From Octopus vulgaris (Eukaryota), in contig OX597838.1 in assembly GCA_951406725.2 (NCBI GenBank), forward strand, positions 9,734,001 to 9,798,000: a stretch of 64,000 nt of DNA, given 5' to 3'. The notes under the pieces are model-generated. The model saw only the letters and a program-made list of their open reading frames with translations, was not told where the DNA came from and made no database searches. Positions 27,001 through 31,955 of the stretch are shown here, piece by piece. A program made the translations under genes and the position numbers. Each line of letters begins with the position of its first letter. Positions within the stretch are counted from its first letter, which is position 1.

Positions 27001-30000
27001 TCTTCTGCTTTCACCCAGTCTGGCGTCAACGCATATAGATAGACAGTTTGTGCCATTTATTCCATGGGCTCCTCGTGAGCGTTTGTCGAAAAGCTTGTTG
27101 TGCATTTTTTTGGAGAATTAAGTTCCTGGATTTTCCTTAAGAGAAGGCTGCAAAATGGACTCCTTATTCAATCCGAATTAGGGACTTTGCAGCCTTCGAA
27201 ACATATGTAGAAAATAATAAAAAGGAATTTTGTTAAATCTTCGTTCAGCTCCATTTCTTCCTACACTTAATATATATATATATATATATATATATATATA
27301 TATATATATATATATATATATATATATATACAGCACATTTAATCACAATATACAAATCATCTGTGCAGGTTGTTCGGCAAACACTGAACGCTTACATGCC
27401 TCCTTTATCTCTCTCTCTCTCTCTCTCTCTCTTATATATATATATATATATATATATATATATATATATATATGTGTGTGTGTATATATAGAATGGTTGT
27501 ATACTGTCAATTTAACGTGACAGTAGGGGATTACACCACCGCTGTTTAGCCCTAGGAAACATCGACGCCTCCTGATGGCTTCGACACATTTTCTTCCTGT
27601 GTCCTTATATATTTACGAAGGGGAGACAAATATATAAGGACACGGGAAGAAAATGTGTCGAAGCCATCAGGAGGCGTCGATGCTTCCTAGGGCTAAACAG
27701 CGGTGGTGTAATACCCTACTGTCACGTTAAATTGACAGTATACAACCATTCTATCTTCCCACCACCGTACATATCTCTATGAGATATTTAGAAATTTAAT
27801 ATTTCTGATATATATATATATATATATATATATATATATATGTATGTATGTATGTATGTATGTATGTATGTATGTATGTATGCATGTATGTATGTATGTA
27901 TGTATGTATGTATGTATGTATGTATGTATGGATGGATGGATGGATGTATGGATATATGTATGTATATGTATATTATCGTTATTATTATTGAGTGAGAGAG
28001 CAGTGCATGCCATCAAAGTGACACTGGGGTAAAATATACGAAGCCCAATATACCCATCATGACTACCCGTCTGATAAGGGTACACCAGGCACATGCATCA
28101 CAGCCATATGTGCGCGACATGGTGATCTCATATCAAGATAAACAGCACATGACCTTGCAGGTAGGGCCCAGTTAGAATTTTCTTCTGGTCGAGTAGCCCA
28201 TCCCGTTCAAAAGGTCCTTGAATAAGGGTCGTTTAATGATGTTGAACGAAACACCCATGTTTCCAGTGGTGAATTATTCAAACCCCAAAGAATCCCTCTC
28301 AACACATCGCTATAATGCTCCCCCACTGCTTCTGCTCGTGATCAGAGATGCACATATCGTCAGCCACTAAGGGACATGCTCAACTGGTTAAGGCCAAACA
28401 ACTGACAAGCAAATCTGTGGTATTGAGCAGAATATTTGCTGTAGTCCATCTTTTATACCAAGACAAAACAATTGTACATGATAACACTTCCAATCGGTTA
28501 AGATCAGAAGCCATGAGAGCCTCTGCCTGGTACTGCATCAGGGCATTTATTATTATTATTATTATTATTATTATTATTATTAAACATTTAATAATAATCT
28601 CCGCTGACAAGTTGCTGCTATATGTAATCTAAATGATTTGGGTTAAATCTTCCAATTTCGATGGTCAAACTTTTGATATAGCTTTGGGGCAGTGGTTAGC
28701 GCAGCTGTAAGGTTTACAGCAAACTCGGCGTTCGAATTCTGCAAGCTTTTCAGCGTTTTCTCGTCTCCCGAAGTGTGAACATAATATGCATGCGTACATG
28801 TATATTTGTTGATAAATGTGTGTGCGTGTGCATTTGCGTATCTATGTATGATTTTAATTTTATCATCGAATGTCTTTATTTGTAGATATTTCACCATGAA
28901 CGCTGACGAACAAATTGTCACAGAATCAGAAAAAGATATGAAAAGCTTGCTGGGACTCTGTAACAAGATAACAAAATAGCCAGTCATGCGTGCCTTCTCT
29001 TTTCCATGTTCAAGGGACATAATTCGTAGTTGAAAAGAGAACTAAACTTTTTTGTTAATTTCAACAAATATTTGATGTCAATTAATAATTAAATCATTTC
29101 ATTCGACTAGTGTTTTCTTCTTTTTCTTTTATTCTAGTACAACTGTTTTTAAAACGTCTTTATTTTTTTTTTCCGGTGGAGAAGTTAAGCATCCTAGGTT
29201 TTCAGATCATTTCATTCGACTAGTGTTTTCTTTTTTTCTTTTATTCTAGTACAACTGTTTTTAAAACGTCTTTATTTTCTTCCGGTGGACAAGCTAAGCA
29301 TCCTGGGTTTTCAGACATATTTCTTAGTTCTCGTAAAAGATTCCTAGTTGAGGATAAGTTCATATTCAGTCAAAGTAGTCTTCTTTTAACCTGCTCTCCC
29401 ATTGCTATTTACTCTGTTTCCTTTTCTCTATATCATTTTTTCTCTTTCTCCCTCTCACACCTCTCTTCTTCCCATTTCTATTCTTCTACACAACTGCTGC
29501 TTCATGTGTGTGTGTGTGTGTGTGTGTGTGTGTGTGTGTGTATGTGTGTGTGTGTATGTGTGTGTGTCAAAACTATCACACACAAGATGGACCAAAAATT
29601 TCTTCTTACGAAAATACGCATTTAAATTATCAAATCTAAATGTCATGAATAACGAAAGCGAAACCGGTCGATACATTAAAAATTATATTAAAACTATGTA
29701 AAGTGTGTGCATTTTCCTTCTATAATTTCTTATATATATTACAACTCACCACATAGGGATAATCAAAATTCTTCCTTTTCTGTATATACATATATATACA
29801 CATATATGTTTGTATATATATAGTATATGCATGTATTATATGTATATATATATATATATATATATGTATATACATGTGTATAGTATATATATATATGTGT
29901 GTGTGTGTGTGCGTGTATGCATGTATGTATATATATATATACATACATATATATATATACACACACATATATATATATACACACACACACACACATATAT

Positions 30001-31955: not shown

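Follow-up and report, generated by a model that had tools for sequence, protein, structure and literature searches.

A metalloproteinase gene with two tandem last exons

The window, i.e., the whole stretch of DNA analysed here (64,000 nucleotides of Octopus vulgaris, GenBank assembly GCA_951406725.2, contig OX597838.1, positions 9,734,001 to 9,798,000), contains an entire matrix metalloproteinase (MMP) gene on the plus strand, whose start codon lies at 8959 (tblastn of protein P0002 on the window, ten stretches). Its coding region closes with either of two homologous last exons, A and B, which lie 2.9 kb apart within this one gene, each in its own unit of a tandem duplication. The window was compared with contigs from 8 of the 24 sequencing runs listed, all without tissue labels: three are of DNA type (X5, organism label A, a separate sample; X8, organism label B; X9, organism label D) and five are RNA-like (X3, X4 and X20, treated as RNA on account of their splice joints and a poly(A) end, and X6 and X13, RNA by software guess). 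The features, in window coordinates, are as follows:

8959..26010, plus strand: upstream coding exons for the prodomain, the catalytic domain and hemopexin blades I to IV-S2, common to both isoforms (tblastn; Pfam Peptidase_M10, PG_binding_1, Hemopexin)
25862..26010, plus strand: penultimate exon, whose donor GT at 26011 joins either last exon (contig overhangs equal its last 30 letters at 28886, or its last 22 at 31805)
26095..29355, plus strand: tandem unit 1, about 3.26 kb, containing last exon A (self-BLAST, breakpoints)
28583..28885, plus strand: proximal intron of A, probably homogenised with 31505-31804 (2/300 differences; a single collapsed contig in X5, X8 and X9)
28886..28979, plus strand: coding part of last exon A, 30 codons and TAG; ancestral-type by outgroup match and, from splice contigs, apparently the main form
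28980..29106, plus strand: 3' UTR of A; ATTAAA lies at 29088
29353..29355, plus strand: duplication junction, a 3-nt microhomology (GAT) found again at 26095 and 32575 (contigs in X5, 29326-29500, and X8, 29326-29409)
29356..32577, plus strand: tandem unit 2, containing last exon B and repeat insertions not found in unit 1, of which one spans about 32134-32538 (self-BLAST, breakpoints)
31805..31955, plus strand: coding part of last exon B, 49 codons and TGA; probably derived, with a 19-residue tail and an unpaired Cys
31812..31853, plus strand: B codons 429-442 (28893-28934 in A), which the model places in strands 3 and 4 of blade IV, with 9 of the 11 fixed non-synonymous substitutions
31956..32029, plus strand: 3' UTR of B; ATTAAA lies at 32011, and in X20 a contig compatible with either UTR ends in poly(A) at 32029

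The units stand head to tail, each with different repeat insertions, and the 3-nt microhomology between them is clean. The acceptors of A (28886) and B (31805) are identical (TTTGTAG followed by A, phase 2) and match the donor after 26010 (AA followed by GT), so that the initial annotation of this stretch, which had described the last hemopexin exon as occurring twice with equal acceptor, correct phase and a downstream ATTAAA, holds in these respects. When the genome assembly was searched for further copies of the last exon, only A and B were found. In public annotation A is represented by CAI9740584.1 (456 aa) and B by CAI9740583.1 (475 aa), each entered as Octopus vulgaris metalloproteinase-19-like, and both isoforms are therefore already on record; "MMP19-like" is an automatic annotation label. 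The evolution of this exon pair was not found in the open-access literature searched, and the accessible part of PMC12607849 mentions no MMP by name. An Octopus maya "MMP-19" (PMC8976471, available in part), which by its primer, judged by eye, resembles another paralogue, was put aside.

The encoded protein has the cysteine switch (PRCGxPD), the zinc motif (HExGHxxGxxH) and the Met-turn of the M10A peptidases, with R83, C84, G85, D88, H207, E208, H211, H217 and M225 invariant in all 65 aligned sequences. Pfam PF00413 was matched with an E-value of 5e-47 and the hemopexin domain weakly, in one stretch; four predicted strand sets (268-443) make up a four-blade hemopexin domain, and both isoforms have C261 and C451, which are predicted to form a disulphide. 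These three motifs and the four-blade domain are those of secreted M10A MMPs, from which the octopus protein differs in a very short hinge and, in B, the unpaired Cys of its C-terminal tail. AlphaFold2 models reached a mean pLDDT of 87.1 for A and 84.8 for B (below 50 in the B tail), show a predicted N-terminal hydrophobic helix, and match full-length MMP structures, best among them proMMP-1, proMMP-2 and MMP-13.

The gene is part of a four-gene MMP cluster on contig C25 (9,628,000-9,766,000). Contig C16 carries three further MMP genes, and C20, C3, C6 and another part of C25 carry one each. The catalytic exons of the cluster lie at about:

9,636,400, plus strand
9,654,500, minus strand
9,720,100, plus strand
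9,751,000, plus strand (the window gene)

Other repeats occur nearby: the start-codon region (8602-8982, plus strand) has an inverted copy just 5' of the gene (7591-7940, minus strand, 83% identical) that includes the first signal-peptide codons and might pair with the 5' end as a hairpin, and a 112-bp tandem repeat (29093-29315) follows the poly(A) signal of A only, its backward joint being present in X6, X9 and X13. A Ser-rich open frame of 325 codons (52561-53538, minus strand) resembles an exon belonging to a neighbour gene on the opposite strand.

The duplication is present in several sequencing runs

All three DNA runs, each with a different organism label, contain both exons, and A-type and B-type contigs are alike in depth in each (17.4 and 15 in X5, 48.5 and 35.6 in X8, 7.33 and 7.18 in X9). 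Contigs running from the end of one unit into the start of the next were present in both DNA runs examined at the junction (X5, 29326-29500; X8, 29326-29409), with 30 letters on the left side, one below the 31-letter bridging threshold. Near-identical flanks and similar depths would also suit two alleles, i.e., two haplotypes fused by the assembler, as the initial annotation had cautioned; however, the joined form cannot be obtained from a single copy, A and B are carried by every DNA run, the microhomology is clean and the insertions differ between units, so that this explanation is rejected as largely refuted and receives next to no credence. The tandem duplication is real and no assembly artefact and, given that both copies occur under several organism labels, it is older than the split of those organisms.

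Both last exons are spliced to the common upstream exon

The joint from 26010 to A was found in X3 (on one unbranched contig of 1678 nt) and in X4 (on a deep contig). The joint from 26010 to B was found in X20 only, among the five RNA-like runs: a 244-nt contig, one letter off B, carries a 22-letter overhang equal to the end of the upstream exon, at a depth of 2.7 versus 6.67 for the A-type piece of the same run. X4 and X6 (organism label B) contain B only with intron attached, at depths of 167 and 76, and their A-type pieces reach depths of 1264-3360 and 1543, respectively; no B was seen in X3 or X13. Both splice joints thus exist, and spliced B was encountered once, at low depth. Since contigs lose weak links, they cannot rank the expression of A against that of B, although A looks to be the main form. 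The transcript using 31805 that the initial annotation had asked for is therefore present. Its view of one gene with two swappable alternative last exons stands insofar as both are joined to 26010, and is not supported insofar as it makes the two equals, B being derived and minor where seen.

Exon A is probably ancestral and most changes fell on B

Over their 30 aligned codons, A and B differ by 17 substitutions (8 transitions, 9 transversions) that change 14 residues, with 16 non-synonymous changes to 1 synonymous, the latter sitting within the K/E codon; our recount agreed in full with the substitutions and residues first listed. In addition, B has CAA where A has TAG, as also described earlier, which extends its reading frame by 19 residues and adds a Cys (residue 469). 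The divergent stretch continues past the stop of A as far as about 29019 and includes two indels, of 6 and 3 nt, both of which keep the frame. Divergence outside it is lower: 2/300 in the proximal intron (0.7%, plus one 3-nt gap), 20/367 in the distal duplicated intron (5.4%) and 4/169 in the 3' UTR.

Twelve of the 17 window substitutions (11 non-synonymous, 1 synonymous) are fixed between A and B in all four genomes examined, and the stop and tail add 5 fixed substitutions (in 54 nt) and the 2 in-frame indels. Fixed differences thus number 17 in the 148 nt of exon and tail and 0 in 389 nt of flanks (303 nt of intron, 86 nt of UTR; P 1.5e-10). Fixed and shared sites were counted by hand from contig tables that mask differences near contig ends, and several of the statistical tests in this study were picked after the data had been seen. 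A coding polymorphism adjoins the closing Cys of A: the window reads Gly-Leu at 28953 and 28957, and X5 and X3, which share an organism label, read Arg-Arg.

To polarise these differences we used an orthologue fragment of Octopus bimaculoides (XP_014790999.2), found in a representative-protein search and 77% identical over residues 361-456. It terminates where A terminates, and at the 14 differing residues it is A-like at 9, B-like at 2 and in a third state at 3, so that 9 of the 11 polarised residues changed on B. The residues unlike the outgroup number 7/30 in A and 14/30 in B, and 15/66 upstream, a proportion like that of A. The asymmetry of change toward B has a P of 0.065 by itself and of 0.022 with the stop codon included. 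Short tails after the last Cys are also found in the upstream paralogue of the cluster, in P0003 and in other close relatives. With an outgroup that is A-like and ends as A does, and with short-tailed relatives, B is the derived copy as far as these comparisons tell: A represents the ancestral form, and B took most of the changes, stop loss included.

The reverse polarity, in which the stop is new in A or is bypassed by read-through or editing, was rejected as the main reading, since the outgroup stops where A stops, and the short tails of the neighbouring paralogue and of P0003 further counter it. No change at the A of this TAG is listed in X3 or X4, whose contigs lose rare variants. Past the stop of A the frame is open for 17 codons (28980-29033), up to the stop that ends B and with a Cys at the equivalent place; read-through would yield a B-like tail, and editing is absent in the contigs.

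Protein searches with residues 250-456 matched only the query protein itself. Against O. bimaculoides, about 10/88 hemopexin residues differ in the first half and 22/96 in the second (A residues 273-456), which indicates at the sequence level that blades III-IV evolve faster even without duplication.

Gene conversion probably keeps the flanks alike

The proximal introns of the two units collapse to one contig in each of X5, X8 and X9, and these contigs carry letters missing from either window copy (28837 in all three, 28777 in X5). Similarly, X8 and X9 share site 29079 and an indel at 29073 in the collapsed UTR contig, and X8 also has 29047. Five flanking sites (28777, 28837, 29047, 29079 and the indel at 29073) are thus common to both copies within a genome yet differ between genomes, as read from collapsed contigs, which are about as deep as A and B together. 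Within exon and tail there are 3-5 such sites: 28953 reads A/A in X5, G/A in the window and G/G in both X8 and X9; at 28945 both copies of X9 have the letter of B; and in the window, A carries the letter of B at 28995 and 29032, and B that of A at 29013 (A position; synonymous). Fixed and shared sites are distributed differently between exon plus tail and flanks (P 0.001-0.008).

Variants common to both copies inside one genome point to gene conversion, which is therefore the likely cause of the similarity between the flanks of A and B. Homogenised flanks are unusable as a clock, and the contrast that had first drawn attention to this exon, about 19% divergence against under 1% for the adjacent intron, consequently exaggerates its speed: the counts are right, but the use of the nearest intron as a rate reference has to be given up, as both proximal intron and UTR carry the signature of conversion. 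More generally, an exon that appears to evolve faster than its intron between close duplicates may owe this appearance to conversion.

The changes cluster on a predicted edge of blade IV

On the model, the last exon forms two strands of blade IV (426-431 and 436-443), a short helix and the stretch with Cys451. The structural placement that the initial annotation had proposed as a check put the altered residues at what is predicted to be the outside of this blade: codons 429-442, with 9 of the 11 fixed non-synonymous substitutions (P 0.02; 8 residues), make up a predicted outer hairpin, whose hydropathy goes from -1.05 in A to +0.71 in B, i.e., from polar to hydrophobic. The aromatic and aliphatic core positions, Cys451, the acceptor and the frame are unchanged between A and B, and the tail of B adds three positive charges and Cys469.

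According to the accessible part of PMC3678729, the outer strand of blade IV (strand 4) is needed for homodimers of MMP-9 and MT1-MMP, and a rival dimer interface is also mentioned for MT1-MMP. By analogy, B might differ from A in dimerisation or partner binding with its catalytic domain unchanged. A homodimer prediction for the hemopexin domain of B scored 0.00, which is uninformative either way.

Is copy B under selection?

Within the window, dN/dS between A and B is about 5-6 (4.9-6.4; one-sided P 0.03-0.10), and the single synonymous change among 17 gives one-sided P values of 0.046-0.097 (binomial) or 0.031-0.076 (Fisher), depending on transition weight. The corresponding tests were non-significant for the fixed sites (11:1, P 0.15-0.24), for the B branch (P 0.09-0.27) and for the fixed-versus-variable table (P 0.52). 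The elevated ratio anticipated at the outset is present in the window comparison at borderline significance, and is not significant on the B branch as assigned with the orthologue.

Rates are more telling, though dependent on the clock. On B, 9 non-synonymous changes are fixed (two of them, at 429 and 452, polarised by codon parsimony), where the distal intron predicts 1.9 (P 1.5e-4), so that replacements on B run at about five times the rate of that intron; A has 2, in line with expectation. Homogenisation may have reached part of the distal intron as well, which weakens its use as a clock. With the tail as clock, 3.2 changes are expected on B (P 0.006), and 6.4 if all tail changes are placed on B (P 0.20). 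The probability of a peak with the observed width falling wholly within the coding stretch of B by chance is about 0.06. Between the window and X8, 5/138 non-synonymous sites differ versus 6/778 non-coding sites (P 0.016; P 0.05 without the change private to the window).

These data have to be weighed against the possibility that B is a little-used spare on which constraint is relaxed, and which drifted and lost its stop while only A mattered, its own divergence and indels blocking conversion locally as the flanks continued to be homogenised. The ratio of non-synonymous to synonymous changes on B is compatible with neutrality, B splicing is low or absent in four of the five RNA-like runs, the stop is lost and the tail modelled with low confidence, and divergence is raised past the stop of A as well (the 5 fixed substitutions in 54 nt). 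However, if only A mattered, conversion of B by A would be neutral, and the differences of B should therefore vanish, as they do in the flanks and at exon sites. Conversion does appear to enter the exon (28945, 28953), yet the fixed replacements around these sites persist in four genomes; the peak is confined to the coding stretch of B, the replacement rate on B is well above that of the distal intron, the core is spared and both indels are in frame. We consider the spare-copy account possible but somewhat unlikely. Selection on B, for which rate and persistence argue and which dN/dS by itself does not establish, is on balance probable.

Discussion

Our preferred reading, to which we assign a probability of roughly 55%, is that of a young exon duplicate in which conversion homogenises the flanks and selection reshapes the blade IV edge and 19-residue tail of B. 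A tandem duplication produced two last exons, each spliced to the exon ending at 26010; conversion would keep their flanks similar while selection drives the newer B toward a hydrophobic outer edge of blade IV, giving it other binding partners with the catalytic domain as before. The choice of exon would be decided by competition: A, as the default, has the closer acceptor and poly(A) site, and B is reached when these are skipped. With acceptors identical in sequence, A would be expected to win mostly, which agrees with the runs. From the vertebrate MMP-9 and MT1-MMP cases, the likeliest effect would be on dimerisation or partner binding at strand 4 of blade IV, and Cys469 may be free for an intermolecular disulphide. 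A bolder version, which we hold to be rather unlikely, is that of a newborn MMP isoform whose selected hydrophobic edge and free-Cys tail let B dimerise or tether covalently in one tissue, resisting conversion; if true, it would offer a one-exon natural experiment on the role of the MMP hemopexin edge.

The gene could alternatively be of venom type, with diversifying selection on a pair of interchangeable blades, used to the same extent and directed at prey substrates. The exon is much more divergent than the intron, replacements appear to be ongoing between organisms (the comparison of the window with X8 above), and the accessible part of a salivary-gland proteome (PMC7693380) reports metalloproteases, their type unstated. 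Conversion would account for the intron likeness, however, change is confined mainly to one copy, and B is minor where seen; the supplement of that proteome holds, among the entries listed, no matrix metalloproteinase name and no matching peptide, a weak point against venom. The toxin analogy of the initial annotation thus finds no support there, nor do the introns supply the clock on which such a diagnosis depends, and we judge a venom role improbable. Conotoxin genes are a further comparison for accelerated exon evolution. In snake venom PLA2, coding regions are more divergent than introns and UTRs, with KA at or above KS (PMC7285919, in the part available). Those are gland-expressed multigene venom families, unlike this one exon pair with evident signs of conversion.

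The preferred reading, a young exon pair shaped jointly by conversion and selection, has its nearest relatives elsewhere. RHCE/RHD is reported as one example of a divergence peak under conversion. Others are red/green opsin exon 5 and Drosophila Pre28, in which introns are homogenised within species, fixed differences are clustered and replacements are in excess, as expected under the selection-conversion peak model of Teshima and Innan (2008) as given in the accessible parts of PMC3924837 and PMC2588116. The octopus exons resemble them in the first two respects, with flanking sites shared within genomes and clustered differences fixed between copies, and show an excess of replacements of borderline significance. 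However, opsins, Pre28 and RHCE/RHD are separate genes, whereas A and B are alternative exons of one gene, and orthologous divergence, flat in the portion of the Pre28 work available, looks raised in the octopus exon.

The pair also fits tandem duplicated exon substitution: two homologous tandem last exons from one duplication are each spliced to a common upstream exon, with one C-terminal region swapped. C-terminal swaps make up 77 of 236 such events in human (PMC9741552, in the part available). The human cases are mostly ancient and conservative; the octopus pair, known here from DNA and RNA alone, is young (absent from the outgroup protein, common to three organism labels), still exchanging DNA, and marked by radical one-sided changes and a stop loss. 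Each of these patterns is known, and what is fresh is their union in one young, polarised, single-gene case.

Should B turn out to be splicing noise, the case is one of ordinary duplicate decay. The homologous alternative exons known so far are mostly ancient, and their first steps can no longer be watched. The octopus pair is young and still exchanges DNA, an outgroup polarises it, and its members differ at one defined surface of an enzyme that is otherwise the same, which opens two questions to test: can selection keep a new alternative exon distinct in the face of conversion, and what is the role of strand 4 of blade IV in an invertebrate MMP?
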